NCBI GenBank assembly: GCA_034530875.2
Contig: JAVRCJ020000018.1
Span: forward strand, 1 to 64,000
Direction of reading: 5' to 3'
Origin: Nostoc sp. DedSLP01
GTDB taxonomy: Bacteria > Cyanobacteriota > Cyanobacteriia > Cyanobacteriales > Nostocaceae
Length of the DNA: 64,000 nt
Shown: piece by piece, positions 10,887-49,515 of the stretch
Layout of the letters: each line of letters begins with the position of its first letter
How positions within the stretch are numbered: position 1 is the stretch's first letter
Notes under the pieces: model-generated
What the model saw: the letters and a program-made list of their open reading frames with translations, nothing else
What the model was told of the DNA's origin: nothing
Database searches by the model: none
Program-made: the position numbers and the translations under genes

Positions 10887-11453
10887 ATGATGAAGCGAAC
10901 TAACTACTACAACGATCTGTTAGCAGATTACTCTAAGCCAGAGCTAGTTTCTCATGAGCTAGGTGTAAAACTACTCACAGATGCAGAAACATATATTTCT
11001 CTACGTGAGAATACTTTACCTGAAATAACTCTAGAATACAGTTTACAGCAAGTAGAGCAGGAAAATAAACATTGGTGGCCAACCCACTGCGAAGCACTAC
11101 GACAAGGGCGGGGGGACATTTTAGCAGGCGAATATGTCAACCAACTTGTATATTTATGTGCTGACGGGCCTTTTTATGGCAGAACCGCAGCAACAAATAG
11201 AGAAGTAAATCGATGGGCAATTCTTGCTCAACCAAGTGTAACGATAGCTTGGCCAATTATTATGTTCAATGGTGAAGTTATCTACTCTGAATGGAATTGT
11301 TTTGATGACGAAACAAACGAACTCATTGCCAAGGGAAACGAAACTTTGCTTCGACGAGGACATCGAGGTGCGTGTTACTTAAAATGCGAACAATTTAGTT
11401 TTTACCGTGACGTTTATGCCTCTGATGAATTGCTGCATTGGATCCGGCTTTAA
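10887..11453 (+). CDS. Hypothetical protein, probable NTF2/SnoaL-like fold
   Basis: 188-aa ORF with RBS. The pattern EALRQG...EY...YLCADGPFYGR...EVIYSEW resembles SnoaL-like domains (inference). Confidence 0.6.
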   Translation: MMKRTNYYNDLLADYSKPELVSHELGVKLLTDAETYISLRENTLPEITLEYSLQQVEQENKHWWPTHCEALRQGRGDILAGEYVNQLVYLCADGPFYGRTAATNREVNRWAILAQPSVTIAWPIIMFNGEVIYSEWNCFDDETNELIAKGNETLLRRGHRGACYLKCEQFSFYRDVYASDELLHWIRL

Positions 11454-11638
11454 CTAAATTAGCGATCGCTGAATATTTATAAATAAATGAAGGAGGAATA
11501 TAGCATTAAGCCAAATAATTAATTTTCGGAATTTTACTGAAACTTGGCATCAAAGGAGAAATATTTAGACTCAACTCTAGTTTAGATAGTCTGAGATGGA
11601 ACCAAGTGTGTTTAATACAATGTAATGAGGCTAAAGTG

Positions 11639-12310
11639 ATGGAATCTAATTACTTATTAAATGGCATTGACTCTTATAACGTTAACATCGCTATTAATAC
11701 AGCGATACTGACAAGTTTTGAAAAGTTCCTGCTTCAGTCCCAACCTTTGTTAAGTCATGTTTTTCGATTTATTGAGACAAATTATCATAATTCAATTAGT
11801 CTTAGAGAGGTGGCTGAGGCGGTTAGTCGGTCTCCTGCCTACCTCACCGACCTTGTACGGCGAGAGACTGGAAAAACCGTACTTTGTTGGATTGTTGAGC
11901 GTCGGATGGTAGAAGCACGCCGTCTACTTATCGAAACAGACCAGTCAGTAGAGCAGATAGCTGAAGCTGTCGGCTATCTGGATAGACGCCATTTCGGTCG
12001 CCAATTTCTCCGGCTCCACAATACAACCCCGCAAACATGGCGAAAGTCCCATCGCAGTAAGAACATCCCATGTTGGCAAAGAGTGCCACAAAAGACAAGC
12101 TCAAACGAATTAATCGCCCAGGAAACCACAACTGTGAGTTTTGCAGAAGCTCAACGGTTACAAGCATGTATCCAAGAGATTGCTGCAATTTTTAGCAAAA
12201 GTACTATTGCTAATGAAGTACTTATGTTAAAAAGCGAAAATGGTTCTGTTGCAAAAATAGACAATGGTTTGATACAGATAACTTTAGTTTCAAATCCCGA
12301 ACCGTGTTGA
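11639..12310 (+). CDS. AraC-family transcriptional regulator (paralogue 1)
   Basis: ISLREVAEAVSRSPAYLTDLVRRETG...SVEQIAEAVGYLDRRHFGRQF...TPQTWR double HTH. ATG 11639 chosen by alignment with the paralogue. Confidence 0.9.
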   Translation: MESNYLLNGIDSYNVNIAINTAILTSFEKFLLQSQPLLSHVFRFIETNYHNSISLREVAEAVSRSPAYLTDLVRRETGKTVLCWIVERRMVEARRLLIETDQSVEQIAEAVGYLDRRHFGRQFLRLHNTTPQTWRKSHRSKNIPCWQRVPQKTSSNELIAQETTTVSFAEAQRLQACIQEIAAIFSKSTIANEVLMLKSENGSVAKIDNGLIQITLVSNPEPC

Positions 12311-12595
12311 GTTCAAATCAAGGCATGGAACATTTTTGTACTGATTGCCGAACTAACCCTGTTTTATCACTCCAGTAAAACAATAATCTCAGCAAGGTTC
12401 TGAAAATTTTATTGAGTCAAGCTTTGAGCTTTTATTTTCTAATAGCTAAATAGAATTGATAGCTCAAACTAGGAAATTAAAGCTCTGAGAACTTTTCAGC
12501 AATTGGCTTTTTCAAAAGTAAAGTGAGAAAACAGGGCTAATCAAAGCTTGGGGGCAATCAGTAGCCAAAAATCAACTATCAACGTAGCAGATCGT

Positions 12596-12864: not shown

Positions 12865-13335
12865 ATGAGTACTAATTTAATTACTGCCATAATTAATAAC
12901 AATCTTAAAGAGGCTAAAAAATTAATTGAAACTGGCGTAAACGTTAACCAAACAGACAGCAGTGGAAATAGCCTCTTGATTGTCAGTTCTGCTAACGGTC
13001 AATCAGAAATGGTGAAGTTACTACTTGATGCTGGTGCTGATATTCACGCGGTTGACTCAAATATGAAAGCTACTGCACTCCATGCCTCTGCCTATTTGAG
13101 ACATCCAAAGGTCATGAAAATTCTGATTGAATACGGGATTAATATAAACGCTCAAGGGCCTTATAACGGATATACTGCCCTACACGATGCAGTTTGGCAG
13201 AATAATATTGAAGGAGTCAGGCTGCTGATCGACGCGGGTGCTCGCTTAGACATCAAAGCTAACAACGGAGACACTCCTTTAGATATTGCCAAAAAAAGTG
13301 GGCGTAAAGAAATTGTTGCTATGCTTTCTAATTAG
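12865..13335 (+). CDS. Ankyrin repeat protein
   Basis: Repeats GNSLLIVS, ATALHASA, GYTALHDAV, GDTPLDIA. Confidence 0.92.
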   Translation: MSTNLITAIINNNLKEAKKLIETGVNVNQTDSSGNSLLIVSSANGQSEMVKLLLDAGADIHAVDSNMKATALHASAYLRHPKVMKILIEYGININAQGPYNGYTALHDAVWQNNIEGVRLLIDAGARLDIKANNGDTPLDIAKKSGRKEIVAMLSN

Positions 13336-13493: not shown

Positions 13494-15086
13494 CTAAAAC
13501 TCCATCGCTTGATTGACATATATTTCAATATCTTTACCTGCGTGCAAAAACCAGATATTAGTACGTTGCATCCTGATTTTAGAGATAGCCTGTTGATTTC
13601 GCTGAAAAATTGTAGGAAGTACAGTTTTTATCCCGCCTTCTACCAAACCTGCTAATGTGTTGCCTCTTGGGTTGTCGCTGGTGTATTGTGTGCCGTTAGT
13701 AGTTATGGTGGTTTGGGAATCAGTACGATTAGATAACTCTGCGGCTTTACTAGCACCACCTAAAAAAAATAGTCCTACATCAATCCCAGCAATCGACGAT
13801 CCTCGTTCGGGAAATTGGTCGGCTATTAAAGGTTTTCCTTGGGGAGCGCGAATAACCATAGCATTTTGCGCTAAGCTTTTTTGTGTGAGAGTGCGATTAT
13901 TTTCTAGAATGACTTTGACTACATCCAGCTTTAGTAAACCCTGTTGAGAAATAGAACGAATTTTAATTAAAAACTCAGTGTTAGCAGGTAAAGCGATCGC
14001 ACCATCCACAGATTTTAATGGTTGTTTCAATCGCCCAACAAATACGTTATTGTTATCGTCTTGATTATTGTTAGTTTTTGCTTTAGTAGTTTCCCCAAAC
14101 ACAGCTGTTGCTAATACAGCTTTAACGCTGGTTCCCGCTGGTACCAATTTTGGCTTTGATGATTGTACTTGGCTCACTATCGAAGTTGTCAGCGATTGGA
14201 TTTGGTTAGGATTAGAATTTGGTATTTGTCGTACCACCTGGATATTTTTAATAGGTGGATTGGTAGCAATTCTACTATTAGGTTTATCAGTGATATTTAC
14301 CTGACCATAACTACCTAACTTTGCTAATCTTTTCCATTCCTGGATTGGGTTTGGTGTGGGTGATGGAGTAAAATCAACGACTGATTGATTATCTGGTTTG
14401 ATAGCTGGTAACTGTGAAGGTTGAGGTACTTGTTTAACTGTGACTATCTCAGGCTGAAAAACTGTTTGTATAGGTGTTCTTTGCAGTGTGATTGGCTGTT
14501 TACTTCTAGAATCACCTGACGATTTTACATCTGAAGTGGCTGTAAGCTGAGGAAGCTTTAATTTTTCACTTTTAAGGTTTTTTTGTGTGGCTTCGATTGA
14601 TTCTGCTTGTTGAGTCAGGGCTAATTTTGTTTTCAAAATTTCTATTTCTTCTTCTAGCTCTTGAGAAGTGGATGCAGTAGTTAATTGCGATCGCCCTTGT
14701 AAGACAACAATATTATTTTTTAGCTTTTGACTGCTAGCATTCATCAGCTGGAATAAAAACCCAGCTGTTAACAAAACTATAGCTAAGGTAGCAGTCCCTA
14801 CTAAACCTAACTTAGCAAATCGATTAGACAAGAAGAATTCTTGAGCCTCAAGTTCTTGCGATTGGGAAACTGACTTTTCTAAAGTAATAGTGTCTTCTAA
14901 AGCTGGAACTTCAATAGCATGGCATTCTTCTGCCAAGCCAACCAACCTTGCGATTTGTGATTCCCAATCTAAAGATTCTACTTCTAGTGGAGGTTCATCC
15001 GAGTTTAAAGATGATAAATTTTGTGCAGAAATTTTTGAACTAATTGAATCTTTAACTATTGTATAAATTGAGGTTTGATTTTTCAT
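13494..15086 (-). CDS. TrbI/VirB10-like membrane protein
   Basis: One TM helix, coiled coil, Pro/Gln-rich linker, and C-terminal VPAGTSVKAVLAT...LKQPL...ALPANT...AGKDIEIYVN beta domain typical of cyanobacterial TrbI/VirB10. Confidence 0.7.
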   Translation of the reverse strand: MKNQTSIYTIVKDSISSKISAQNLSSLNSDEPPLEVESLDWESQIARLVGLAEECHAIEVPALEDTITLEKSVSQSQELEAQEFFLSNRFAKLGLVGTATLAIVLLTAGFLFQLMNASSQKLKNNIVVLQGRSQLTTASTSQELEEEIEILKTKLALTQQAESIEATQKNLKSEKLKLPQLTATSDVKSSGDSRSKQPITLQRTPIQTVFQPEIVTVKQVPQPSQLPAIKPDNQSVVDFTPSPTPNPIQEWKRLAKLGSYGQVNITDKPNSRIATNPPIKNIQVVRQIPNSNPNQIQSLTTSIVSQVQSSKPKLVPAGTSVKAVLATAVFGETTKAKTNNNQDDNNNVFVGRLKQPLKSVDGAIALPANTEFLIKIRSISQQGLLKLDVVKVILENNRTLTQKSLAQNAMVIRAPQGKPLIADQFPERGSSIAGIDVGLFFLGGASKAAELSNRTDSQTTITTNGTQYTSDNPRGNTLAGLVEGGIKTVLPTIFQRNQQAISKIRMQRTNIWFLHAGKDIEIYVNQAMEF

Positions 15087-15451: not shown

Positions 15452-16201
15452 TCACCAAGGCAAAGAAAATGGACCGCCAAACTTTCTCATTTCTGCAAAA
15501 AAGCCACCTTGAGAACCGCCATCTGGCAGTGTAGCCAAATAAACAGCTGTTTGTGCGCCTTCTTCTGCGGTCAAGGGTGCATCTGCTCCTCCAATATCAG
15601 TTTTCATCCATCCAGGAGAATAGTTATTGACTAAAACATTAGTGCCTTTTAGCTCTTTAGCTAACAGACAAGCCACTCCATTTAAAGCAATTTTTGACAG
15701 CCTATATGAGGGAGCAATAGAATAAAAATCGTTACTTATAAGGCTTAAGGATGCCATTTCAGTAGATACATTGACAATGCGGCCATAATTACGCTCTTTC
15801 ATGAGAGGAATTAGTGCTTGACACATCCGCAATGCGCCTATTGTATTGACTGCAAATGACGAGATAACTGTATCTAATTTCGCAGTCATTATACTGCTTT
15901 CTTCAGGCTCTTTTGTAGAATTGATGCCTGCATTATTGACTAATATATCTACCCTCTCATACTGTTTATGTAACTCACTGAGAAAATTTTCAACACTTTT
16001 GTCATCAGTTACATCAAGAGGTAAATAGTCAACTTTAAGGCCTTGTTGTACCAATTTACCACAAGCTTCCAATCCCTGTGTTTCGTCTCGACTGGACATG
16101 ATAACTTGAATATTTTCTAGCTTCGCTAATTGCCGGGCAATCTCAAAACCAAGACCTTTGGAACTGCCTGTAATAACTGCGACTCTTTTTTCTGTTTTCA
16201 T
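15452..16201 (-). CDS. Short-chain dehydrogenase/reductase (carbonyl-reductase-like)
   Basis: TGSSKGLG, NNAG, YRLSK (YxxxK), PGWMKTD. Confidence 0.92.
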   Translation of the reverse strand: MKTEKRVAVITGSSKGLGFEIARQLAKLENIQVIMSSRDETQGLEACGKLVQQGLKVDYLPLDVTDDKSVENFLSELHKQYERVDILVNNAGINSTKEPEESSIMTAKLDTVISSFAVNTIGALRMCQALIPLMKERNYGRIVNVSTEMASLSLISNDFYSIAPSYRLSKIALNGVACLLAKELKGTNVLVNNYSPGWMKTDIGGADAPLTAEEGAQTAVYLATLPDGGSQGGFFAEMRKFGGPFSLPW

Positions 16202-16347
16202 GATTAGTTTACGACACAAAGTACTATCCGACGTTCATCAATAACCTCAGCAGTAATTTAGCAGTGATACTCTATATGGTTATTAGTATTTGTATGGCTT
16301 TGTTAACTAAATGACTTAGTTAAGTTTTGTTTTGCAGATGCGATCGC

Positions 16348-17958
16348 CTAACCGTTAATATCTTCTGCGATGATTTTGTCCATACAACGTTCTGCTAAAG
16401 CTGCAATGGTAAAAGAAGGATTCGTACAACCTGTAGAGCCTGGAATCAGCGCACCATCAACAACATAAAGTCTAGGGTAACCATATACCCGCCCAAATGG
16501 GTCGCAAGCTTTTCCCATCACGCAACCACCCAAAGGATGACCAGTAATGGCAGCATCATTATTTTCAGATACAACAGTATTATTTCGGGATTTTGATATC
16601 ATCCCCTCTTCGGTTTTATGGTGAGGTTGTTTTCCAAAAGTATTAAGGTTGCGATCGAGGGTTGCGAAAAGACTCTCTGTCTTTTTGACAATGCGATCGT
16701 CGGCAGATCCCGGCCACTCCAAATCAACACTATCTGTAGAGAAATTGTATGTAAACTTACCCCTTGGACGAGGAATACCTAAACCAAGACAAGATTGGAT
16801 ACCGTCAGGATTATTCCCCAGTTCAAGACTCTCTACAACTATAGGAGTCGGCCCATCAAGTCGCTCAATAGCAGCACCTGCGGTTCCTCCATTACCTGTT
16901 ACAGGGCCTAAACCCGATCTAATTGTAATGTTATCTCCATTAGTTCCCCAATTTTTACCAACGAAGTTATTTAACAGAGGTAATGAATTTTTTGCTTTAG
17001 CTTTAACTAAAAGTTTAGAAGTTGCGACAGAACCAGCTGCGATAAATAAATAGCGGCAGGTAAAGGTTTTTTTCCCGATAAGTTCTCCTGACTCATTAAT
17101 TTCATTACAGAAAACACGGTAATTTTCTTGTCCAGGTATTTTAGTAATATCTGTAACTAAATGTAGAGTCAACACATTTACTTTCCCCGTATTTTCCGCT
17201 TGAGGAAGATAGTTGCGATCTAAACTATTTTTTGCTCCACTATTAACACCCCACCAACATTGACCATTGATAACAGAAGGTCTTTTTGAGCCATTAATTT
17301 CTTGACGAATTACATCCCAATCTACAGCTAGATCTAGTAAAAAGCTTGGCAAGCCTGCCTTATTTGCATTCTCTATGAAAAATCGTGTTTTACCATAGTA
17401 ACTAGTAGCTAAAACATCCTGTGGAATTGGTGATGCTTTTAGCATTTTTTGAACTCGAGGATAGTAAATCGAATCTAGCTCGTCATAATCAACAACAGAA
17501 TAATCAAAAACCTTATAAAACATTTCTCGCTTAGGTTTATAAGTGATAGCGTTATAAACTAACGAACCACCCCCGAAACCAGCACCATTAACAACAATAA
17601 TTCCTTTTTCCTGTAGTGTTTCAAAAACTCCTGTATACACATCTACAGAATCGTTAAACACAGATTTTGTACTCAGCCAAGCGGCTCTACCGTCAGGTTT
17701 ATCGAAAGTTGCAAAAGTATTTTGATTGGGTGTAATAGGCCAACGCTTACCTCGTTCTAAAATCAAGGTGTTAATACCAGCTTGCCCCAATCGTAAAGCT
17801 GCAATAGCTCCACCAAAACCGCTACCAATTACTACTGCGTCTATATAATCATCGCTAGCACGAGTCCGATTTGGAAATGCCAATGAACCGGCTAAACCAG
17901 CAGAAAATAGTGCAGTACTCTGAAGAAAATAGCGACGCTTAAAAGGCTTATGAATCAT
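16348..17958 (-). CDS. Tat-exported GMC oxidoreductase, cholesterol-oxidase-like (copy 1)
   Basis: KRRYFLQ twin-Arg signal, GSGFGG FAD motif, GHPLGG, LYVVDGALIPG, TNPSFTIAALAER. ATG 17958 follows GGAG. Confidence 0.9.
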   Translation of the reverse strand: MIHKPFKRRYFLQSTALFSAGLAGSLAFPNRTRASDDYIDAVVIGSGFGGAIAALRLGQAGINTLILERGKRWPITPNQNTFATFDKPDGRAAWLSTKSVFNDSVDVYTGVFETLQEKGIIVVNGAGFGGGSLVYNAITYKPKREMFYKVFDYSVVDYDELDSIYYPRVQKMLKASPIPQDVLATSYYGKTRFFIENANKAGLPSFLLDLAVDWDVIRQEINGSKRPSVINGQCWWGVNSGAKNSLDRNYLPQAENTGKVNVLTLHLVTDITKIPGQENYRVFCNEINESGELIGKKTFTCRYLFIAAGSVATSKLLVKAKAKNSLPLLNNFVGKNWGTNGDNITIRSGLGPVTGNGGTAGAAIERLDGPTPIVVESLELGNNPDGIQSCLGLGIPRPRGKFTYNFSTDSVDLEWPGSADDRIVKKTESLFATLDRNLNTFGKQPHHKTEEGMISKSRNNTVVSENNDAAITGHPLGGCVMGKACDPFGRVYGYPRLYVVDGALIPGSTGCTNPSFTIAALAERCMDKIIAEDING

Positions 17959-18324
17959 ATAGTTCTCCAAATTTTAGTAATATCCAGTTTTCTAGAAAAT
18001 CAACTTATACTAACTAATTAGTATTTTAAAGTTTCAATTTTTGAACTAGTATTACAGTTATTTTCTGTAGACAATGAATATCTATTTAAAATATAAATAC
18101 TTTAAGTCCTGGTAAATAAAATGGCGATTGTATTTTAATAACTCAATATTTTGAGAAAAAACAATCGCCTAAACGTAGGTTTTGTTCTTTGAAAAAGCAG
18201 GCTAGTTACTCATGGGAAAAATCCCAAAGCTCTGATAGTGGGAAGCCTCCGATCGGACTTATCTTTGCAAAGCTTTGGCTCTTTTATTTTTCAGTTCAAG
18301 CGTTTTTGTTAAGTCTTTAATTAC

Positions 18325-19047
18325 TTATCCAACTACTCCTGTTACTGTATTCTTGGCTGGTTGGCGGAAACGCAATGAAGTATACCACCACCACAAACCA
18401 TGTGATGCTTTCCACCATTCACCAACGGTGACAGTATCATCAAGTTTCTCAAGTTCCGGATTCTTGGGAAGAATAAAGTAGATAAGATTCGATGTTTCTT
18501 CTAATGACTGAATCTTTAAGTCAGCAGGAAATGGTATTCCCATTTCTCCTTCAAATATGGATCTTGGATCGTTAAGGAGTTTTTGACGGAAGGCTTCATT
18601 AGTCCAAGAACGAACTATCCATAACGCTTGTAAACTTTCTCTGTAAGCTCTAGCTTTAGTAGCGCCAGCGAGTCGATAGTAAAAATACCAAAAAGTATCA
18701 ATGATTGGCCACCAACTAGCAAATTGTTCGTATCTGTACCAATGCTCTTCAACTGGTGGAGTTGCAGGAAGTACAAAGTAGAAGGTTTTCTCAGGTTCTT
18801 CTAAAACCTTAACCTCTACATTTGCAGGAAATGTAATTCCTGTTTCTCTTTCAAACACAACTTTTGGATTGGTAAGTATTTCTTGCTTGAGGGATTCATC
18901 ATTCCAAATGCGGTCAATCAGTCGTGCTTGTAAAGCCTCATAATAAGGCCCAAAATTCGTGATATCTACACCAGACCAAAGCTTTCTAACTTGAGGGAAG
19001 TCAGCAGAGGTAGAGATATTTGTCAAGGAAGGATTCGTGGTAACCAT
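18325..19047 (-). CDS. Protein with two tandem nitrile-hydratase-like leader (NHLP) domains, each followed by a Trp/Tyr-rich segment
   Basis: RIWNDESLKQEILTNPK...FPANVEVKVLEE...YFVLP and RSWTNEAFRQKLLNDPR...FPADLKIQSLEET..YFILP. Confidence 0.8.
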   Translation of the reverse strand: MVTTNPSLTNISTSADFPQVRKLWSGVDITNFGPYYEALQARLIDRIWNDESLKQEILTNPKVVFERETGITFPANVEVKVLEEPEKTFYFVLPATPPVEEHWYRYEQFASWWPIIDTFWYFYYRLAGATKARAYRESLQALWIVRSWTNEAFRQKLLNDPRSIFEGEMGIPFPADLKIQSLEETSNLIYFILPKNPELEKLDDTVTVGEWWKASHGLWWWYTSLRFRQPAKNTVTGVVG

Positions 19048-19841: not shown

Positions 19842-20063
19842 CTACTTCTCCTTTAAGTCTGTCGATGAATATGTTAATTTGGAATTTGGTATTTCTAATG
19901 CTTTCTCCCTAATAACTGAATTAATAGCAACACATTAATTTCTTGTTAATTAGGTGGGCGATTCATGTCTAAATAAAAGTGAGTGCGACCTCAATTACTT
20001 AGTGATTTTTGTTGTCTGGCAACCCTGATTTTCCTTTACTTTATAAATAATTAAAAATAATTA

Positions 20064-20090
20064 AAAGGGTCAAATTTTGGAAATAAGTTT
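20064..20090 (-). promoter_or_regulatory. Shared 27-bp operator/promoter motif (copy upstream of SDR-NHLP-GMC unit)
   Basis: Minus strand: AAAAAATAC-AAACTTATTTCCAAAATTTGACCCTTT, then TTTTAA-N17-TAAAGT. Confidence 0.6.
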
Positions 20091-20514
20091 GTATTTTTTC
20101 GGTTTTTCATTTTTAAGTTTTATTTTTAGTTTTGAGTTGATTAAATCAAAACTTAGAATTTTTAAAATCTTAAAACATTTCCAAAAAGTTGTTAATTATA
20201 GATTGTTCATTTCAAAGATTAACTGTATAAAGAGAAAAATTTAAAGTTGCTAATTACAAACTTAAAAATATTAGCAAACTGCTGGATATTGAAATTGCAT
20301 AATTAGGGCAGCAAAATGACCACTCCAGAAAATTTTTATATGTCACCCATCGTGTTTATTTTCTTGTTGTTTGGGGCTTGATGGGAATGCAGCAATACCG
20401 TTGGTTAACGATTTTTTTGTTGAGGCAGGCTGTTCTTGAGCAGGGGGAGAATTATTCCTCCCCTGCTTCCCTCAAATGTCTTGGGAGTGCAAGCGCCTTT
20501 ACTAAAATTTATCT

Positions 20515-21543
20515 TTATTGTGGCGATCGCTTGTTCTCTTTAGGACGGATATCCAACCCTGGCACGCCTATATCTAAACGAAATATCCCTCCATAACCGT
20601 CTTCTGCTTTTATCCCACCTGTCACAAATATCTGGTCGAGCTTCGGGCCTGCAAAAGCACAGTTGCTAGTGGTGAGATTGCCAGTTGCATATCGACGGAT
20701 CAGCTTGCCCTCAGGATTGAGAACTTCTAGTTGACCCATACCATAGTGAGCCACGTAGAGGTTCCCTGTTGCATCTTGACATATCCCGTCAGGCTTATTG
20801 TCTATTTGCTCTCCCTGTTTGATAGGAAGTTCAGCAAAAACTTTATGGGAACTCACTTTTCCCGGTGAAACTACGTTGTAGACTAAAATTTGATTCTTAT
20901 TGCTTTCGCTAACAAAGAGCCGCTTGCCATCTGGAGTCAGGTGAATGCCATTGGCAAAAGCTATTCCAGTAGCGACTGAGTTAATTTTCCCTCTAAAATC
21001 CACATAGTAAACTGCGCCATTGGGGGTTTCGGAGTTGGAATTGCCGGAGTCAGTGAAGTAAAAACTTCCTGCTTGGGAATCAATAGTAATATCATTGGGA
21101 TACTGCAAAGGCTTGCCATTAAATTCCTTGGCGATCGCTTTTAGGAGATTACCATTGCTATCTAGCTGCAACACCGAATTTTGAGCAGCGACAATATGAG
21201 TACCGTCAGATAAAATCTTATGACCATTTGCACCAGGGACTTTTGCCCAGATTTTAGTCAACCCTTCAGGAGTTAAAACTGTGATTGTCCCGGCTTTAGT
21301 TTGGGAGAAATAGAGGTTACCCGCACTATCTAAGACAATTCCCTCGGAATATTTGTCGCTTTGTATAACCTTCGTTGGTGAGATAATATACGCTGGCGGC
21401 AGTGTAACTTCAGGGCTAGCAGCTACAGCTACATCCAAGAAGCGCGCGGTCTGTGTCAGGCTAGAGTCTTTAGTACTATCTCGGCAAGACACTAGCAGCA
21501 AAATTTGTACGCAGCTCAAAATAATCAAAGAAAATTTACGCAT
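20515..21543 (-). CDS. SMP-30/gluconolactonase/LRE family lipoprotein
   Basis: Lipobox-like LLVSC; SEG, PND, ANG and PDG motifs of the 6-bladed SMP-30 propeller. Confidence 0.88.
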   Translation of the reverse strand: MRKFSLIILSCVQILLLVSCRDSTKDSSLTQTARFLDVAVAASPEVTLPPAYIISPTKVIQSDKYSEGIVLDSAGNLYFSQTKAGTITVLTPEGLTKIWAKVPGANGHKILSDGTHIVAAQNSVLQLDSNGNLLKAIAKEFNGKPLQYPNDITIDSQAGSFYFTDSGNSNSETPNGAVYYVDFRGKINSVATGIAFANGIHLTPDGKRLFVSESNKNQILVYNVVSPGKVSSHKVFAELPIKQGEQIDNKPDGICQDATGNLYVAHYGMGQLEVLNPEGKLIRRYATGNLTTSNCAFAGPKLDQIFVTGGIKAEDGYGGIFRLDIGVPGLDIRPKENKRSPQ

Positions 21544-27388: not shown

Positions 27389-27435
27389 CATCTATGTTTT
27401 ATGCGTCTTAATCTTAGATATAAGAGTAAAAATTT

Positions 27436-39280: not shown

Positions 39281-39307
39281 AAACTTTCCCCAAAACTTAA
39301 ACCCTTG
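39281..39307 (+). promoter_or_regulatory. Shared 27-bp motif (copy upstream of glgX-AGE unit)
   Basis: AAAAAAATAC-AAACTTTCCCCAAAACTTAAACCCTTG, with TTGCAA-N18-TAAAAT. Confidence 0.65.
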
Positions 39308-39590
39308 CAACTATAGTTAAATAACTACTAAAATTATTTTATCTAAACTACTTAACAGGCAATTAAATTACCTAAATAAGTAGAATTTACTTTATTTACA
39401 AAGCTTTGACTCAATAATTACTGAATAGATGTATGAGTAGGTTTTACCAAGAGTAAGCCTTATCCAGGGCAAGATTGTAGTCAAAAATTAAGGGGTAATT
39501 TAACACGAATTTAGTTATTAATAACTTTTTGATAGCTAGAAATGTGCAAAATAACCTGCTAATTAAATGCCATAAGGACAGAGAGAAAGA

Positions 39591-41756: not shown

Positions 41757-43920
41757 TATAGACTTTTCATTTGCAGATTTAATTGCTGGGTATGTTACTG
41801 CTTTTGACTCCAGTAAGGGAGATTCAGGTACTTTCGATCTCAAAACGTCAGATGGCAGAAAATTTGAAGTAGCATTGACCTCAATGACTTATGCTGAGCT
41901 AGTACGCAATTTAGATGAGCCTTTCTTTGATTGCACTAGCCAAATAAATTCAATGCTCGTTCCAAATTGCTATCTTTTCGCTTATGGCATTTTTTATCCT
42001 GAAGCAGGCGAACAGAAATTTGAAGCTAAACACATAGTTTTTCTCGGTAGAACAGAAAACGAGTATCTTTTTGAAAGACCAGATTGGTGGGTCAAGCAGA
42101 TACGAAGCCTTGGTAATTTTTACCTCAAAGCCCAGTTTGAAGATGGCGAAATTGATTATCGAAAATATCGCACTGGTATCGGTTTAGTTGGTTCTAAAGA
42201 AGATAGCACTCGTCAGGAAACGGACACGATTTCTCGTCTAGTTTACGGTTTTGCCACAGCCTACATGATGACTGGGGACGATCGCTATCTTGAAGCTGCC
42301 GAAAAAGGCACTGAATATCTCCGCCAACACATGCGCTTTCTAGATGAAGGCGAAGGGATTTGCTATTGGTATCATGCTGTTGATGTCAAACCAGATGGCA
42401 GCGAACAGAAAATATTCTCCTCAGAATTTGGGGATGATTATGACGCTATTCCAGCTTACGAGCAAATTTATGCCCTGGCAGGCCCCACCCAAACCTATCG
42501 GATAACAGGCGATCCACGCATCATCAAAGATATCGAGTTGACGATTAATCTGTTTGACAAGTATTTCTTGGATAAGACAGAGAAAGGAGGATTTTTCTCT
42601 CACATCGATCCGATTACTCTCAGCCCCCACTCCCAGACTCTAGGCCACAATCGCGCCAAGAAGAATTGGAACTCCGTAGGTGACCATGCCCCGGCTTATT
42701 TGATCAATCTTTGGCTAGCTACCGGCAAAGAAGAATACGCCAATTTCCTGGAGTACACCTTCGACACCATTGAAAAGCGGTTCCCAGATTATGACCGTAG
42801 CCCATTCGTTCAAGAACGTTTTTATGAGGACTGGACTCACGATACAACTTGGGGATGGCAGCAGAATCGAGCAGTTGTAGGCCATAACCTAAAAATTGCT
42901 TGGAACTTAATGCGGATGAACCACCTGAAACCAAAAGAAAACTATGTGACTCTGGCAGAAAAGATTGCAGAAATCATGCCAGCAGTCGGTAGCGACCAAC
43001 AGCGTGGGGGGTGGTACGATGTCGTGGAACGCACTTTAAAACCAGGGCAAGAGGTACACCGTTTTGTCTGGCATAACCGCAAAGCTTGGTGGCAGCAGGA
43101 ACAAGCTATCTTAGCCTACCTGATCCTCAACGGTTCCCTCGATCGACCTGAGTATCAACGCCAAGCCCGCCAAGCAGCAGCTTTCTATAATGCTTGGTTC
43201 CTTGATTACCTTGCTGGGGGTATCTACTTTAATGTTCTGGCAAATGGGATTCCTTACTTATTAGGAACGGAACGAGGCAAGGGCAGCCACTCTATGAGCG
43301 GTTACCACTCGTTTGAATTGGCGTACTTAGCTTGCGTTTATACGAATCTGCTGATTACTAAACAGCCAATGGATTTGTACTTTAAACCAAAGCCAGGCGG
43401 CTTTAAAGACAACATCCTCCGAGTTGCACCAGATATCTTACCACCGGGCAGCGTGCGGATTGGGGATGTCTGGATCGATGGCCAAAAGTATGCAGATTTT
43501 GATGCTGTAAACTTAACAGTCAAACTGCCAGTTACTCAAGACGATCTCAAAGTGAGAGTCAGACTGCTTCCGACTCAAGTATCTTTCGATGCCACCGTGT
43601 TAGAAGTCAGTAATGGTATTGCCAAAATCTCCTTAACTGGGTTATTGGATGCTAATGGTGTAGTACATTTTCAAGAAGCGATCGCTAAAGCTACAGCACA
43701 GCCAATCAATCGTTTAGTCTTACTACTACAAGACCTAGAATGTATTACTACTGCTGGCCTCCGGTCTCTGATTTTTGCTAAACAAAAACTGGGTTCTGAT
43801 GTTGAACTCTACATAGTTGGCGCACCGGAGAACGTAAAACAATTCCTGATGACGAGTGCATTTTGCAACAGTGTCACCGTTTTAGATGAGTACGAAACTG
43901 TTGAGCTAGCAAGTGTCTAA
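41749..43920 (+). CDS. AGE (N-acylglucosamine 2-epimerase)-superfamily protein fused to a C-terminal STAS domain
   Basis: ATG after AGGAG overlapping the glgX stop (ATGAGTAA). SRLVYGFA, GHNLKIAW, WWQQEQA, YHSFE; C-terminal LTGLLDA...LECITTAGLRSL STAS. Confidence 0.85.
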   Translation: MSNIDFSFADLIAGYVTAFDSSKGDSGTFDLKTSDGRKFEVALTSMTYAELVRNLDEPFFDCTSQINSMLVPNCYLFAYGIFYPEAGEQKFEAKHIVFLGRTENEYLFERPDWWVKQIRSLGNFYLKAQFEDGEIDYRKYRTGIGLVGSKEDSTRQETDTISRLVYGFATAYMMTGDDRYLEAAEKGTEYLRQHMRFLDEGEGICYWYHAVDVKPDGSEQKIFSSEFGDDYDAIPAYEQIYALAGPTQTYRITGDPRIIKDIELTINLFDKYFLDKTEKGGFFSHIDPITLSPHSQTLGHNRAKKNWNSVGDHAPAYLINLWLATGKEEYANFLEYTFDTIEKRFPDYDRSPFVQERFYEDWTHDTTWGWQQNRAVVGHNLKIAWNLMRMNHLKPKENYVTLAEKIAEIMPAVGSDQQRGGWYDVVERTLKPGQEVHRFVWHNRKAWWQQEQAILAYLILNGSLDRPEYQRQARQAAAFYNAWFLDYLAGGIYFNVLANGIPYLLGTERGKGSHSMSGYHSFELAYLACVYTNLLITKQPMDLYFKPKPGGFKDNILRVAPDILPPGSVRIGDVWIDGQKYADFDAVNLTVKLPVTQDDLKVRVRLLPTQVSFDATVLEVSNGIAKISLTGLLDANGVVHFQEAIAKATAQPINRLVLLLQDLECITTAGLRSLIFAKQKLGSDVELYIVGAPENVKQFLMTSAFCNSVTVLDEYETVELASV

Positions 43921-44248
43921 GTTCCGCTAAAAGACATTTGAGTAGTCCTAATTAGATAAGAGATAAATAGTTCCAACAAAGGAACTGCGGTTTATCCAAA
44001 TCTATTAGGACTATGCTTAATACACTTGAGTTAATAATCATATACCTTTACCAAAATAAAAGCCTAAAAAAATTTGGGCAAAACTGGCAAAATATCCCAT
44101 ATATGAGCATTATTAATCCTAAAATTATTTTGTTAAGTTATTTAACAGTTTAAATAATTCATGTTGCTAGCGATGAAAAGAAACTAGAGACTCACAAGTT
44201 ACTTCAATTAATAGTGAGTCTTTGTTGACAATAAACGAGACTGAAATA

Positions 44249-44908
44249 ATGGATTCTAATCACTTATTAAATGGCACTGACTCTCATAAAGTTAACATCG
44301 CTATTAATACGGGAATACTAACAAATTTTGAACATTTCTTGCTTCAGTCCCAACCATTGCTAAACCATGTTTTTCGATTTATTGAGACAAATTATCATAA
44401 TTCAATTAGTCTTAGAGAGGTGGCTGAGGCGGTCAATCGGTCTCCTGCCTATCTCACCGACCTTGTACGGAGAGAGACTGGAAAAACGGTGCTCTGTTGG
44501 ATTGTTGAGCGTCGGATGCTAGAAGCACGCCGTCTACTTCTAGAAACAGACCAGTCAGTCGAGCAGATTGCCGAAGCAGTAGGATATTTAGACAGACGCC
44601 ATTTCGGTCGCCAGTTTCTCCGGCTTCACAATACAACCCCGCAAACATGGCGAAGGTCGCATCTGAGTAAGAGCATCCCATGTTGGCAAAGAGTCTCACA
44701 AAAAGCAAGCTTAAGCGAATTAATCAATGAGGAATCCACAACTGTGACTTTTGCAGAAGCTCAACGTTTGCAAGTCTGTATCCAAGAGATTGCTGCAATT
44801 TTTAATAAGAGTACTACTCCCGATCAAGTACTTGTATTAAAAAGCGAAAATGGTTCTCTTGCAAAAATAGACAATGGTTCGATACAAATAACCTTAGTAT
44901 CAACTTGA
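44249..44908 (+). CDS. AraC-family transcriptional regulator (paralogue 2)
   Basis: Nearly identical HTH region to 11639-12310. Confidence 0.9.
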   Translation: MDSNHLLNGTDSHKVNIAINTGILTNFEHFLLQSQPLLNHVFRFIETNYHNSISLREVAEAVNRSPAYLTDLVRRETGKTVLCWIVERRMLEARRLLLETDQSVEQIAEAVGYLDRRHFGRQFLRLHNTTPQTWRRSHLSKSIPCWQRVSQKASLSELINEESTTVTFAEAQRLQVCIQEIAAIFNKSTTPDQVLVLKSENGSLAKIDNGSIQITLVST

Positions 44909-45198: not shown

Positions 45199-46860
45199 TT
45201 GGTTAATCCCGTACTACTTACTGTTGATGATGACCCCGGAGTTCTACGAGTAATAGAGCGAGATCTCCGACAAGAGTATGGCGATCGCTTTCGGGTATTA
45301 CGAGCCGATTCAGGTGCGAATGCTTTGAGAGTATTGCAACAAGTAAAATTACGTAACGAGACAGTTGCGCTCTGTGTGGTAGACCAGCGGATGCCACAAA
45401 TGTCGGGCGTGCAGTTCCTCGAACAGGCGATGCAAATTTTCCCGTCTGCAAAACGAGTTTTACTAACAGCTTATGCAGACACTGATGCTGCTATTTCTGC
45501 GATCAATACAGCAAAGATTGATTATTATCTTCTCAAACCTTGGGAGCCGCCACAAGATCTTCTGTATCCAGTTCTGAGCGATTTATTAGACGATTGGGTT
45601 TCTTCATACCGCCCACCCTTTGAAGGTATCCGCGTTATTGGCTCCCGTTGGTCGCCTAAGAGTCATCATATTAAGGACTTCTTAGCGCGTAACTATATGC
45701 CTTATCAGTGGTTGGACATTGAGATAGAAGAAGAAGCCCGTCAGTGGGTTAGTTATGCTCAGTGTAATACCGCACATTTGCCACTACTAGTTTGCCCTGA
45801 CGGTTCCTATCTCAAACAGCCAACCCACGCCGAAATTGCTGAGAAAATCGGGTTGAAGACGCAGCCTCAAATGCCCTTTTACGATTTGGTAATCGTCGGG
45901 GGCGGGCCAGCTGGTTTGGCAGCAGCAGTTTATGGAGCTTCTGAAGGTCTACGTACAGTATTGATTGAAAAAGAAGCTCCAGGGGGGCAAGCCGGAACGA
46001 GTTCCCGGATCGAGAACTATTTAGGCTTTCCCCAAGGAATTGCTGGATCGGAATTAGCTCGCCGCGCCGTTACTCAAGCTAAACGATTTGGGGTAGAGAT
46101 TCTCTCGCCTCAAGAGGTAATTGGCATTCGCTTGCAAGATTCTTATCGCATTATCAAGCTCAAAGATGGGACAGAATTAAGCTGTTACGCATTGTTGATT
46201 GCCACAGGTGTCTCATATCGCAAACTCGATCTACCTGGCATTGAGAATTTGACTGGAGCCGGTATATATTACGGTGCAGCAATGACCGAAGCCCTCTCCT
46301 GCCAAAACGAAGATGTTTATGTAGTTGGCGGAGCTAACTCAGCTGGGCAAGCTGCGGTGTACATTTCTAAGTATGCTCGCCATGTGACTATGTTGGTACG
46401 CGGTGACTCACTGGCTACAAGTATGTCAAAGTACTTGATAGACCGAATCTTAGCAACAGACAATATTAGCGTTAGGTTTCATTCTCACATTGTCGAGGTT
46501 CGCGGCCAGACTAACCTAGAGGCAATTACGATCGCTAACACTAAAACCCAACAACAGGAAACCATTCCCACAAAGCTGCTGTTCATTTTAATTGGTGCAA
46601 AGCCACATACTGATTGGCTGGGTGGGATTGTGGAGAGAGACGAACAAGGATTTATCTTAACCGGGCCAAGCTTGATACCCAATAAACAATGTTCAAAAGC
46701 ATGGAAACTCGATCGCCAACCCTTCCTGCTGGAATCGAGCGTACCAGGCATATTTGTGGCTGGAGATGTACGTAACGGCTCAGTGAAGCGAGTTGCTTCC
46801 GGCGTTGGTGAGGGTGCGATCGCTATTCAGTTCATCCATCAATATCTAAGTAAGGTGTAA
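45199..46860 (+). CDS. Response-regulator receiver fused to thioredoxin-reductase-like FAD oxidoreductase
   Basis: VDDD...DQRMP...LTAY...KPW receiver; GGGPAG, GGANSAG, AGDVR. TTG start after AGGAG. Confidence 0.9.
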   Translation: MVNPVLLTVDDDPGVLRVIERDLRQEYGDRFRVLRADSGANALRVLQQVKLRNETVALCVVDQRMPQMSGVQFLEQAMQIFPSAKRVLLTAYADTDAAISAINTAKIDYYLLKPWEPPQDLLYPVLSDLLDDWVSSYRPPFEGIRVIGSRWSPKSHHIKDFLARNYMPYQWLDIEIEEEARQWVSYAQCNTAHLPLLVCPDGSYLKQPTHAEIAEKIGLKTQPQMPFYDLVIVGGGPAGLAAAVYGASEGLRTVLIEKEAPGGQAGTSSRIENYLGFPQGIAGSELARRAVTQAKRFGVEILSPQEVIGIRLQDSYRIIKLKDGTELSCYALLIATGVSYRKLDLPGIENLTGAGIYYGAAMTEALSCQNEDVYVVGGANSAGQAAVYISKYARHVTMLVRGDSLATSMSKYLIDRILATDNISVRFHSHIVEVRGQTNLEAITIANTKTQQQETIPTKLLFILIGAKPHTDWLGGIVERDEQGFILTGPSLIPNKQCSKAWKLDRQPFLLESSVPGIFVAGDVRNGSVKRVASGVGEGAIAIQFIHQYLSKV

Positions 46861-46862
46861 TT

Positions 46863-48323
46863 ATGTTAGATGCTTTGCGCCAAGTGTCACTTTTTGCACA
46901 ATTGACAAATGAGCAATTCCAATGGTTGTCTGACCACGGGCATGAACTATGGCTGGTTCCAGGAGAATATATAGCCCTTGAGGGAGAACCAATAGAGAAT
47001 TTCTACGTGCTGATAGAAGGCGAGATTGAGTTTAGAAAACAGGTCGGCAATGTAGAAAGACACATAATGAGTTTTGGCCCTGGAACATATACAGGTCACG
47101 AGCTGATTCTATTAGATGTTCCTCACTATCTTGTGAACGTGCGGGCTGTGAAACCAACTTATATGTTGAAATGGGACACAGATACTTTCTGGAAAATGCT
47201 GACAACCTGTCCGTCGATTACACGCGATCTGTTAATCATCACGGCGCAACGGGTGCAAATTTTGGAATCTATGTCACAGCACCACCAAAAGCTAATTGCA
47301 CTCGGTACTTTAGCAGCTGGTTTAGCCCATGAGTTAAACAACCCAGCAACAGCTGCGATCCGAGCTGCAAAGCACTTGCACAAAATCTTTCAACAATTGC
47401 CATATCTGGGACTCAAACTCAATTACAGGCAGATGACAAAAGAACAACTGCTGTTTCTTGACAATTTGCTGCACAGAGTAATTGCACGTGCCGAAACACC
47501 CTGCGACTTAGAAGATTTACTAGCGCAGAGCGATCGCGAGCAAGAGGTGACAGACTGGCTGGATTTACACAACGTGCCTGACGGCTGGAAAATTGTTTCT
47601 TCCTTAGTCCGGGGAGGACTGGATACTCAATCCCTGGATACCATTGCCGAACATTTATCTCCAGAATCACTTGCTGAAGTTCTAGCTTGGATCGAGGCGA
47701 CACTCACAGGAATTGAGCTACTCGACGAAATTGACCAAAGTTCGGGGCGCATTTCGGAACTGGTCAAAGCTATTAAAGAGTACTCGTATATGGATCGAGC
47801 TCCCATACAGGAGGTGGATATACACCAGGGACTTGAAAGTACGCTGACTATTCTCGGTCATAAGCTCAAGGGTGGCATTACTCTAATACGCAATTACGAC
47901 CAAAACCTACCACTAATCTCGGTCTATGGTAGCGAACTCAACCAGGTATGGACGAACCTGATTGACAATGCGATCGATGCAATGAACGGACAAGGACAGA
48001 TCGCGATCCGCACAGCACGAGAAAATAACTGCGTGCTAGTAGAAATTGCCAACAATGGCCCAGCCATTCCGCCAGAAATCCAAGAGCGAATATTCGAGCC
48101 GTTCTTTACTACTAAAGGTGTGGGTCAGGGAACAGGTTTAGGTTTAGTCATTAGTTACCGAATTGTTGAAAAGCATAAAGGCGAGATCCGCGTGTTTTCC
48201 GAACCAGGAAACACCCATTTTCAGGTCATTTTGCCCATATCTTTGGCCGAAGTAACATCTGAATGCCATCAATACCAATTTATACCGCCCGATCGTACAA
48301 CTATGCAATTTGTACACAGTTGA
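46863..48323 (+). CDS. Cyclic-nucleotide-binding-domain sensor histidine kinase
   Basis: N-terminal cNMP fold (EGEP..NFYVLIEGE), H-box AHELNNP, NLIDNAIDA, FEPFFTTK, GTGLGL. Confidence 0.92.
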   Translation: MLDALRQVSLFAQLTNEQFQWLSDHGHELWLVPGEYIALEGEPIENFYVLIEGEIEFRKQVGNVERHIMSFGPGTYTGHELILLDVPHYLVNVRAVKPTYMLKWDTDTFWKMLTTCPSITRDLLIITAQRVQILESMSQHHQKLIALGTLAAGLAHELNNPATAAIRAAKHLHKIFQQLPYLGLKLNYRQMTKEQLLFLDNLLHRVIARAETPCDLEDLLAQSDREQEVTDWLDLHNVPDGWKIVSSLVRGGLDTQSLDTIAEHLSPESLAEVLAWIEATLTGIELLDEIDQSSGRISELVKAIKEYSYMDRAPIQEVDIHQGLESTLTILGHKLKGGITLIRNYDQNLPLISVYGSELNQVWTNLIDNAIDAMNGQGQIAIRTARENNCVLVEIANNGPAIPPEIQERIFEPFFTTKGVGQGTGLGLVISYRIVEKHKGEIRVFSEPGNTHFQVILPISLAEVTSECHQYQFIPPDRTTMQFVHS

Positions 48324-48339
48324 TTAAGGAGTGTGTGGG

Positions 48340-49515
48340 ATGAAGAAATGGTTAAAATCTCCTGAGTTACGTATTACCGAAGGTAAGGAAGAAGAACGGC
48401 ACGCAACGTGGTTAGAACTCTTTTTCGATCTATTTTTCGTAGTTGCAATTTCGGAGCTTGCTCACAATCTTAATCGGGATGTCTCACTATCAGGCTTCCT
48501 TAGCTTTCTACTGCTCTTTGTGTCGGTTTGGTGGTCTTGGATTGGCGTTACATACTACGCCAATCTCTTTGATACTGATGATTTGGTACACCGACTCTTA
48601 ACCGCTTTACAAATGCTTGCAGTGGCGGCGCTAGCAGTAAACGTACACGACGGGATGGATAAAAGTTCAGTTGGTTTCGCGCTTTCCTATGCTGTTGTTC
48701 GGGTGTTGCTTGTCCTGGAGTTTTTACGGGCTGGAAAGCATGTAGTTGCAGCACGTCCATTAACGACCCGAATCGCGAGTGGTACTGGACTTGGGGCATT
48801 GGTTTGGCTGGTGTCGGCATTTCTACCAATGCCACTGCGATTTGGGTTTTGGATCTTAGCCCTGACAGTAGAATTTGCAATAGTATTGACAGCAGGAAAG
48901 TCTGTGCATGTGGAATTAGCTCCCCACGCTTCACACTTGCCCGAACGTTTTGGCTTATTTACCTTAATTGTGCTAGGCGAGACAGTCTTAGCAGTAGTTA
49001 ATGCTATTGCACAACAGGAGTGGAATTTCTCATCAGCATATACTGCAATGTTCGGTTTAAGTATTGCTTTTAGTTTGTGGTGGCTGTATTTTGATAACCT
49101 TGGTGGCTCAGCAATCCAAGCGGCTCGTGCGTGCCGCCACATAGGAGCTTATCAGACTTGGGTTTACATGCACTTACCCTTGGTAATTGGTATTACTGCT
49201 GCCGGAGTTGGGGTGGAACACGCCCTAGCAAGTGATACAGGTCTGGTGCTGGCATCTTCTGAGCGCTGGCTTATTTGCGCTAGCTTGGCGCTGTGCTTCT
49301 TTACTCTGGGAATCATTTATCTTACTGGTGTAACCACTGACACCAGACTACGCTGCAAAGTCCGAGCCGCATATCGGTTTGTGGCGGTAGCTGTGATTAT
49401 AATTCTCGGTGTAGCTGGCACAGGTTTGTCAGCTATGGAATTGATTGGGCTTATAGCAGTGGTTGGTGCTGTTCAAATTATCCTCGATCTGCGTCAGGTT
49501 AATAGTTTTTTATGA
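48340..49515 (+). CDS. ltrA: Low temperature requirement protein A family membrane protein
   Basis: ATWLELFFDLFFVVA, HLPERFGLFTLIVLGE, WWLYF, YMHLPL. Confidence 0.88.
   Translation: MKKWLKSPELRITEGKEEERHATWLELFFDLFFVVAISELAHNLNRDVSLSGFLSFLLLFVSVWWSWIGVTYYANLFDTDDLVHRLLTALQMLAVAALAVNVHDGMDKSSVGFALSYAVVRVLLVLEFLRAGKHVVAARPLTTRIASGTGLGALVWLVSAFLPMPLRFGFWILALTVEFAIVLTAGKSVHVELAPHASHLPERFGLFTLIVLGETVLAVVNAIAQQEWNFSSAYTAMFGLSIAFSLWWLYFDNLGGSAIQAARACRHIGAYQTWVYMHLPLVIGITAAGVGVEHALASDTGLVLASSERWLICASLALCFFTLGIIYLTGVTTDTRLRCKVRAAYRFVAVAVIIILGVAGTGLSAMELIGLIAVVGAVQIILDLRQVNSFL

Follow-up and report, generated by a model that had tools for sequence, protein, structure and literature searches.

A shared promoter motif marks a two-armed gene island of Nostoc sp. 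DedSLP01 with a possible role in turning alpha-glucan into small carbonyl compounds

Results

Contig C18 (JAVRCJ020000018.1) of Nostoc sp. DedSLP01 (GCA_034530875.2; genome G000, 8.57 Mb, GC 40.9%) opens with a 64-kb stretch (positions 1-64,000; hereafter the window) that carries, at 10887..49515, a gene island whose two divergent arms share one 44-nt promoter motif. The closest named relatives of the window are Nostoc-like, and phycobilisome linker and CpeS/CpeT genes lie inside it. Gene families were assigned by Pfam/NCBIfam profile comparison, and every gene listed by an earlier sequence-only reading was found at its coordinates with the family then named; missing from that list were an ankyrin-repeat gene, a TrbI-like gene and a cysteine-rich open reading frame (ORF) of 73 amino acids (aa). 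Relatives are coded below as genomes or stretches (G) and as loci around the AGE-like gene (L); some G stretches and L loci cover the same DNA, and counts based on the two are therefore mutually dependent.

Repeat finding returned four direct and two inverted copies of the motif, at +27352, +28091, +28171, +39271, -20100 and -27188. Two tandem copies (28091..28214, +), with a -10 box TAAACT at 28228-28233, stand ahead of the DJ-1 operon, which begins with DJ-1a (28310..28993, +; PfpI-like, Glu/Cys kept), DJ-1b (28983..29858, +; ThiJ-like/Hsp31-type) and a thiamine diphosphate (ThDP) enzyme (29852..31600, +) whose nearest solved relatives are benzoylformate decarboxylases (326 bits against a family cut-off of 493). 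Further along this strand lie three NTF2/SnoaL-like genes (31640-32089, 32156-32590 and 32799-33620, +; one strong Pfam match, two under the cut-off), a VOC/glyoxalase-family gene (33658..34095, +) and, at 34217..39029 (+), a MIP channel (NPC/NTA), a glucose-dehydrogenase-like (GDH) SDR and a GH63/MGH1-like hydrolase. The copy at 39271..39314 (+), with its -10 box at 39329-39334, precedes a gene for a GlgX-like GH13 enzyme (39591..41756, +), which is followed by one for an AGE-superfamily barrel with a fused STAS domain (41749..43920, +). In the leftward arm, the copy at 27145..27188 (-) heads an operon of two Tat-type, cholesterol-oxidase-like GMC genes (GMC1, 25307..26890; GMC2, 23546..25165), an SLH-OprB cyanobacterial porin (21757..23526; one of at least seven paralogues in the genome) and an SMP-30/gluconolactonase-family (SGL) protein (20515..21543; PF08450) with a lipobox-like leader read from the sequence, all on the minus strand. 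The copy at 20057..20100 (-) heads a second such operon, in which SDR19125 (19125..19841, -) comes first, followed by a tandem NHLP-leader-like protein with Trp-rich segments (18325..19047, -), co-located with GMC3 in relatives, and by GMC3 itself (16348..17970, -), again Tat-type and cholesterol-oxidase-like. Another SDR gene (15452..16219, -) lies beyond. The copy at 27352..27395 (+) faces no intact gene in the window; in relatives it drives malQ, encoding a 4-alpha-glucanotransferase, and is here the orphan promoter of a deleted gene of which the C-terminal 42 codons remain (27545..27670, +; 79% aa identity to the G022 protein). A 27-codon remnant of an M24-peptidase-family gene (27737..27817, -) lies next to it.

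The motif is confined to the island. When each copy was scored by a model built from the others, it reached 31.7-45.2 bits, a score equalled or exceeded in the 8.57-Mb genome only by the other five island sites, and under the six-copy model the next-best genomic site scored 18.4 bits. A consensus pattern gave five matches against none in 100 shuffles; as the pattern was drawn from the same sites, this comparison is circular, and the weight therefore rests on the held-out scores and on the relatives. There, motif sites precede homologues of DJ-1a, glgX, GMC1, SDR19125, NHLP, porin, SGL, malQ (in G005, G006, G009, G022, L001 and L154) and orf10887, the first ORF of the island, at loci of Nostoc, Stigonema, Scytonema and Fischerella; in this window no copy lies upstream of either AraC gene or of orf10887. 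The consensus over 77 distinct sites, AAAnAATncAAaCTTnnnnCnAAAnnTtaACCcTTG, is an approximate 20-nt direct repeat ending in a TTGYA hexamer. Downstream of it, TAnnnT occurs at a spacer of 17 in 61/77 sites, whereas the corresponding counts are 0-4 for spacers of 12-16 or 18-21 and 8-12 for 22-23; since this -10 box falls outside the 44-nt training window, it is independent evidence of a promoter. A strict pattern searched in whole genomes matched in 9/36 genus genomes and in G050, and its reversed control in none. Conservation before the same genes, together with the -10 box, makes the motif a regulon marker, and the motif-bearing operons form one predicted regulon. The proposals that a single promoter motif is common to both arms, and that the arms are co-regulated, are thus borne out by the island-only copies, the conserved sites in relatives and the -10 geometry. 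A generic sigma-70 scan was uninformative, with fewer sites (29) than shuffled sequence (42.9). Four RNA runs, all from one sample of a relative and assembled in one study into contigs that may contain DNA, are not counted as evidence; the contigs cover both arms except GMC3-NHLP, and end near the predicted starts, which are placed some 7 nt past the -10 boxes (28252 in 3/4 runs; 39357-39389 in 4/4; 60-129 nt beyond 26972 in 3/3). One copy outside an island was seen upstream of an unrelated 258-aa gene (G022:C22 ~35046-35081, L158).

Two AraC-family genes lie in the island: AraC1 (11606..12310, +; HTH_18), the candidate binder of the motif, and AraC2 (44222..44908, +), a sporadic duplicate with 83% aa and 88% nt identity to it. 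An AraC orthologue (E<=1e-60) was present in 8/9 motif-positive and 0/27 motif-negative genus genomes, and the motif is likely to be bound by the island's AraC-type protein, as judged from this distribution and the site layout. That layout, a long site overlapping a -35-like hexamer with the -10 box at 17 nt, is the one of AraC class II activators; AraC proteins often overlap the -35 as activators, and the motif would fit such a role. Because these genomes are related and the island travels as one unit, the role of AraC is a lead rather than proof. Besides this genome, a second copy was found only in G006 among the eight AraC-positive genomes (45 searched). The earlier description of the island as AraC-bracketed is therefore right about two closely related genes, but a conserved bracket is not supported and the arrangement is incidental.

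The GlgX-like and AGE-like genes form a constant pair. Among the best 80 of at least 580 GTDB stretches with relatives of the AGE-like gene, a selection biased to cyanobacteria, 51 loci are 20 kb or longer; within 10 kb of the AGE-like gene, a GlgX-like gene was present in 51/51, DJ-1a in 38, orf10887 in 27 and a benzoylformate-decarboxylase-like (BFDC-like) ThDP gene in six, the last two never together. The GlgX-like protein scores 720 bits with TIGR02100 (cut-off 640.9) and retains the GH13 motifs FRFD, AEAWD and HDG. It belongs to a cluster-specific clade, sister to the GlgX of the icfG cluster (slr1852-slr1862) at 47% identity, and the housekeeping GlgX encoded on contig C7 is distant from both cluster clades. 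In the clade whose loci lack a kinase gene, a Glu mostly follows directly on the catalytic nucleophile (FRFDE in 50/94 sequences); icfG and housekeeping forms have Leu at this position. In Runella, Streptomyces and a Nostoc plasmid, genes next to the core encode a glycogen synthase, GlgB, a protein with a maltotransferase domain or a further GH13 enzyme. The link to glucan drawn in the sequence-only reading is upheld by the 51/51 linkage and by malQ under the motif in relatives.

A structure model of the AGE-like protein (pLDDT 86.6, pTM 0.90; loop 490-514 of low confidence) resolves an N-terminal beta domain, an (alpha/alpha)6 barrel of AGE/CE/YihS type, a C-terminal beta domain and STAS. The top Foldseek matches are glucose 2-epimerase, cellobiose 2-epimerase and mannose isomerase, at 13-20% identity. 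Residues R163, N308, H313, H379, W448, E451 and H520 are invariant in 37/37 sequences, the active-site Arg/His set having been matched by sequence alignment. Lys382 replaces the Glu after the second His, and Glu523 the Arg three residues after the last; at the former site, GHNxK occurs in 99/99 sequences and GHDxE in 0/99, so that the GH.xE of cellobiose and GlcNAc 2-epimerases is absent.

Natural fusions connect this protein to both DJ-1 proteins and to the ThDP enzyme. Of 210 long DJ-1a homologues, the 120 top-ranking ones comprise 112 DJ-1a+DJ-1b fusions, four AGE+DJ-1a, and one each of DJ-1a+DJ-1b+AGE, DJ-1a+ThDP and DJ-1a+Ank+Ank (P0368), with one unassigned; the AGEs fused to DJ-1a are a divergent subtype (36-42%). 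This supports the suggestion that the DJ-1 pair, ThDP enzyme and AGE serve one pathway. Named carriers of DJ-1 fusions include Syntrophobacter and Methanospirillum, which are anaerobes, and this suggests that the core is independent of oxygen.

The GMC proteins of the left arm bear RRxFL/RRxFI twin-arginine leaders and match class I cholesterol oxidase over their full length at 270-280 bits (GMC1, 280 bits to Streptomyces-type structures). The equivalents of His447 and Asn485 are kept in 3/3, and that of Glu361 in GMC3 only, GMC1 and GMC2 having Met there. Island-type GMCs (at least 57% identity to GMC3) occur in 7/10 motif-positive and 1/35 motif-negative genomes, and a ~50%-identical class is scattered among both; a fourth paralogue, unlinked and lacking the motif, is located on contig C24. 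The core row itself contains cholesterol-oxidase-like genes, in most cases accompanied by ankyrins, in Mongoliimonas, Competibacter, Leptolyngbya, G050, G052 and G060. The NHLP protein matches TIGR03793 in two stretches (124 bits, cut-off 50.9) and is conserved at 82-95% along its length in genus relatives. No modifying enzyme (YcaO, LanM, radical SAM) of a ribosomally synthesised and post-translationally modified peptide (RiPP) was found among the island proteins and, given also the even conservation of the NHLP protein, a RiPP cluster was rejected. The previous statement that no RiPP core enzyme is present thus stands as regards modifying enzymes, and fails if taken to mean that there is no RiPP element at all, as the NHLP leader passes its cut-off. 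Leader-like small proteins (tandem NHLP in the window, a Nif11-like pair or single gene elsewhere) recur beside GMC oxidases at L176:26116-26776 and in G009 near L045, and beside these, too, no RiPP modifying enzyme was seen.

Arm conservation was assessed in fetched stretches of nine motif-positive genus genomes at 68% identity and 60% coverage. Right-arm genes are present in 8-9/9, and left-arm genes in 2-8/9 (SDR19125 in 7/9, the SDR at 15452 in 5/9). A left-arm gene shares a contig with DJ-1a in seven genomes. In G003 and G012, motif-bearing left-arm genes lie near contig ends; in G019, where the arms are split, AraC, Ank and SDR lie within another 697-kb contig, and the SDR keeps its motif. 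In G025 and G027 the MIP-GDH-GH63 trio is separated from the core. By these counts the unit is a regulon in which the right arm is stable and the left arm varies; they do not support the earlier view of both arms as one fixed pathway.

The AGE-like protein was found in 24/61 relatives, in 28/301 cyanobacterial genomes and, at 80% coverage or more, on 17 plasmids. Named records span seven phyla, with non-cyanobacterial rows from Gemmobacter, Streptomyces, Runella, Deinococcus, Planctomycetota and Chloroflexota. Accessory genes differ between phyla (GMC, SnoaL, EthD/Dabb/ABM, cupin, aldo-keto reductase, ADH), and are, by predicted family, small-carbonyl redox or cyclase types. The Nostoc plasmid variant has AGE, DJ-1s, ThDP and GH13 genes, and no annotated STAS. 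ThDP + KAS III gene pairs, which we take to be furanolide-type, lie within 11 kb of AGE rows at L006:8919-11785, L088:7-2494 and L162:14166-17267, and another such pair is on contig C29 (24.3-27.2 kb) of the present genome, which also has, further along C18 (~130.5-137.2 kb), a related ThDP gene close to a 52%-identical AraC paralogue.

At the left end of the island, orf10887 (10887..11453, +; 188 aa) is a homologue of the first gene in the icfG-type row of Synechocystis salina (L107), from whose position it is named a counterpart of Slr1852. It had no match among Pfam, PDB, Atlas or profile searches, and one of its 595 homologues carries the UniRef label SnoaL-like. The 73-aa ORF (CPCC...CRSC; 12596-12817, +), between AraC1 and the ankyrin gene, is the only small intergenic ORF with the character of a conserved gene. 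Homologues of the ankyrin-repeat protein (12865..13335, +) adjoin the core in distant loci (L093, L119, L125, L150, L166). The TrbI-like gene (13494..15086, -; PF03743), intact in 3/9 relatives, is probably a passenger. At the right end, REC-thioredoxin-reductase (REC-TrxR), cNMP histidine kinase (HK) and LtrA genes occupy 45199..49515 (+). An argument for horizontal origin from GC content was rejected (island 35-47%, genome 40.9%).

Upstream of orf10887, a gene-free 2.4-kb stretch (8500-10886) is conserved as DNA in relatives with its reading frames mostly broken, and is possibly a long leader or RNA. A haem-oxygenase-like iron redox protein (7663-8496, -; PF14518 below the cut-off) has counterparts in 10 fetched loci, where they are either transcribed divergently from orf10887-AraC or situated close to the core. 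Further left is a near-duplicate pair of P-loop/WD40 (STAND-like) proteins (21-2915 and 3690-7274, +); a protein of 1190 aa resembling them is encoded next to the left-arm SDR in L154, and the Gloeothece row L006 includes an NB-ARC gene. As such genes accompany these rows, the island may extend further left. The right flank is ordinary, with a NucA/NuiA nuclease-inhibitor pair and a phycoerythrin linker/lyase set (50108-51417 and 55294-60368).

Discussion

We favour, tentatively and with slightly less than even confidence, an activator-controlled regulon of four main motif-sharing operons, in which the core turns alpha-glucan into a small reactive carbonyl which is then tailored, exported and oxidised. 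The motif, promoter geometry, gene linkage and fusions are observations; the pathway chemistry we infer. The GlgX-like enzyme, with MalQ in relatives, would supply linear maltodextrins with free reducing ends, which are the most likely substrate because the GH13 partner is constant. Conserved histidines of the AGE-like enzyme would abstract the C2 proton of the reducing-end glucose, and the enzyme might then isomerise the chain end and release a deoxy-dicarbonyl hexose. In alkaline peeling, a 4-O-linked chain is eliminated from an end in the enediol or ketose form, which yields a 4-deoxy-hexo-2,3-diulose; an enzymatic version would account for the fusion of carbonyl-handling enzymes to the AGE-like protein. 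That it performs exactly this step is nevertheless doubtful. The DJ-1 pair and ThDP enzyme could process the dicarbonyl onward, and the NTF2, VOC and SDR proteins could shape the product and the MIP channel release it; outside the cytoplasm, it may become a substrate of the Tat oxidases and lactonase. Generalised across phyla, AGE-fold peeling followed by DJ-1/ThDP processing and variable tailoring would define a class of biosynthetic clusters without a recognised core enzyme, making a family of sugar-derived metabolites; we consider this broad version unlikely.

Several observations weigh against the glucan-to-carbonyl regulon. In sections of a preprint, GlgX2 (Slr1857), the icfG counterpart of the GlgX-like enzyme, left a coupled phosphorylase assay on glycogen unaffected, and the knockout strain showed no mutant phenotype (bioRxiv 2022.11.21.517384); it is still called unexplained in the 2025 version. 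Passages of a study in which slr1857 was cloned give activity for slr0237 only (PMC4911114). Since one study thus finds the icfG counterpart without debranching activity, mobilisation of stored glucan by the GlgX-like enzyme is uncertain; as the latter belongs to a sister clade at 47% identity, the inactivity of GlgX2 neither transfers to it nor can be dismissed. Moreover, glgX is broken in G017, and malQ is deleted here save for its 42-codon remnant. The changes at Lys382 and Glu523 may mark new chemistry, or may be a structural charge swap. The range of 2-8/9 for left-arm genes indicates that they are dispensable in some relatives, and G005, G006 and G012 have no cholesterol-oxidase-like gene. 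As for control, AraC and motif are inherited jointly with the island and the binding is predicted only; G017 (400 contigs) and G050 have the motif and no detected AraC orthologue. The motif also stands before a heavy-metal-ATPase-like gene (read from sequence) in G006, and can therefore capture unrelated genes; unrelated insertions also lie downstream of it in G005 and G006.

The island might instead be a stress package without a dedicated product, in which the remodelling or salvage of glucans and unusual sugars falls to GlgX, GH63, MalQ and AGE, and the clearing of spontaneous sugar carbonyls to the DJ-1, VOC, SDR and ThDP proteins. DJ-1 and VOC families are carbonyl scavengers, REC-TrxR, LtrA and MIP suit stress roles, the MIP-GDH-GH63 trio can stand away from the core (G025, G027), and partial accounts of slr1852-1862 describe a response to salt and carbon. 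We see this as a minority prospect, if a substantial one, given the patchy spread (28/301 cyanobacterial genomes), the fusion of dedicated DJ-1 orthogroups to AGE and ThDP, and a Runella row with at most some nine NTF2/ester-cyclase-like genes, which look more like tailoring than scavenging. It is also conceivable, and rather unlikely, that one activator governs a mosaic, with glucan chemistry in the right arm and, in the left, a separate extracytoplasmic oxidation of sterols or other cyclic secondary alcohols, which a partner organism, for instance, might supply. The kinship of the GMCs to class I cholesterol oxidase, His447 and Asn485 included, would suit this, as would the variable and sometimes displaced left arm and the unlinked paralogue on C24. 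Yet the concentration of island-type GMCs in motif-positive genomes (7/10 against 1/35) ties them to the regulon, similar genes sit within the core row of Mongoliimonas, Competibacter, Leptolyngbya, G050, G052 and G060, and the isomerase Glu is missing from two of the three.

Lastly, the GlgX-like and AGE-like proteins could be mainly sugar or glycogen sensors or scaffolds signalling via STAS, with the surrounding enzymes as outputs. STAS adjoins or is fused in the loci examined, GlgX2 was inactive in vitro in the preprint sections cited above, and the icfG kinase/phosphatase network is described, in partial accounts, as governing SigC and growth. Set against these are the AGE-like catalytic residues kept in 37/37 sequences and the intact GH13 motifs of the GlgX-like protein, a genome with no RsbW-like partner (by an L107 query), and the Nostoc plasmid variant without annotated STAS, which together leave such a role quite improbable.

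Studies of the icfG cluster have addressed its kinase/phosphatase switch, and no reaction has been assigned to its enzyme genes; if the peeling class is real, it would supply the missing function of these genes and of GlgX2. Because the island has its own motif and candidate activator, unlike the icfG form, the whole gene set is probably switchable, and its product traceable with labelled carbon. If that product is a dedicated metabolite, then the cluster class is likely missed by rule-based mining.

Comparison with Known Systems

Individual parts of the island recall several described systems. Its GMC proteins share a Tat leader and His447/Asn485 with class I (Streptomyces/Brevibacterium-type) cholesterol oxidase, and reach only 128-140 bits against a cut-off of 850 with the NCBIfam cholesterol oxidase model, which describes a different subfamily. 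As class I homologues rather than sugar oxidases, they remove the basis of an analogy once drawn with the glucosone/cortalcerone route. With the anhydrofructose/microthecin pathway the island would share the concept of turning glucan into a small unsaturated carbonyl without nucleotide sugars. The glucan lyase of that pathway, in fungi and red algae, acts from the non-reducing end, in contrast to the proposed island step, which would start at the reducing end. Neither a GH31 glucan lyase nor an aldos-2-ulose dehydratase was found among the island proteins, to which this search was confined. The AGE 2-epimerases and isomerases (Runella glucose 2-epimerase, cellobiose 2-epimerase, mannose isomerase, YihS), which work at C2 of a free reducing sugar according to parts of PMC6333288, have the barrel and the Arg/His/His/His set in common with the island protein; the latter differs in its low identity (13-20%), extra beta domains, STAS, and GHNLK in place of GH.xE. 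An AraC gene beside a biosynthetic cluster is an arrangement shared with AraC_PKS1/pks1 of Nostoc punctiforme, where overexpression of AraC_PKS1 activates the adjoining pks1 cluster; as described in passages of that study, the cluster has polyketide synthase (PKS) and KAS III core enzymes, unlike the island (PMC9324945).

The closest relative is the icfG cluster, in which AGE-like, STAS, GlgX-like and DJ-1 genes likewise occur together. The row of Synechocystis salina (L107) reads orf10887-like, carboxymuconolactone-decarboxylase-like (CMD), DJ-1, AGE, STAS, GlgX, STAS, PP2C, RsbW; its CMD, DJ-1 and GlgX fall in the same 90% clusters as PCC 6803 slr1853, slr1854 and GlgX BAA17652, and Slr1852 and Slr1855 were matched by position. 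Partial published accounts list Slr1855 as AGE, Slr1856/1859 as STAS and Slr1857 as isoamylase, together with IcfG and Slr1861; they describe slr1852-1862 as responsive to salt and carbon status, and the icfG kinase/phosphatase network as controlling SigC and growth. Identity to L107 is 68% for the AGE-like protein, 57.5% for the first ORF, 47% for GlgX, 41% for STAS and 34% for DJ-1. The PP2C phosphatase IcfG and the RsbW-like kinase Slr1861 are not in the island, and L107 queries found no RsbW-like protein and no CMD (Slr1853) in G000. The island accordingly differs in lacking adjacent PP2C/RsbW and CMD, in the fusion of STAS to AGE, and in a sister-clade glgX that precedes AGE. It adds DJ-1b, ThDP, three NTF2 genes, VOC, MIP-GDH-GH63, REC-TrxR/HK, the oxidase arm and its own promoter motif.

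Gene order separates the two forms. Where glgX follows AGE, as in icfG, kinase and phosphatase are present in 25/26 loci; where it precedes AGE, as here, they are present in 0/25, and REC-TrxR is found in 17/25 of these kinase-free loci and 0/26 of the icfG-order loci. The GlgX tree (quick method, midpoint root) splits in the same way. Because gene order, kinase/phosphatase content and tree divide alike, we regard the island as a kinase-free sister of the icfG cluster and not a strict member. Its core, by homology to L107 and slr proteins, is the enzyme half of that cluster, and the label 'undescribed' in the sequence-only reading must be withdrawn to that extent, even though the literature searched, which left most subscription journals outside its coverage, gave no described reaction for the core enzymes. 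New features are the island-specific motif with its candidate AraC activator, the clean division into forms with and without the kinase, the oxidase arm and the loss of malQ.

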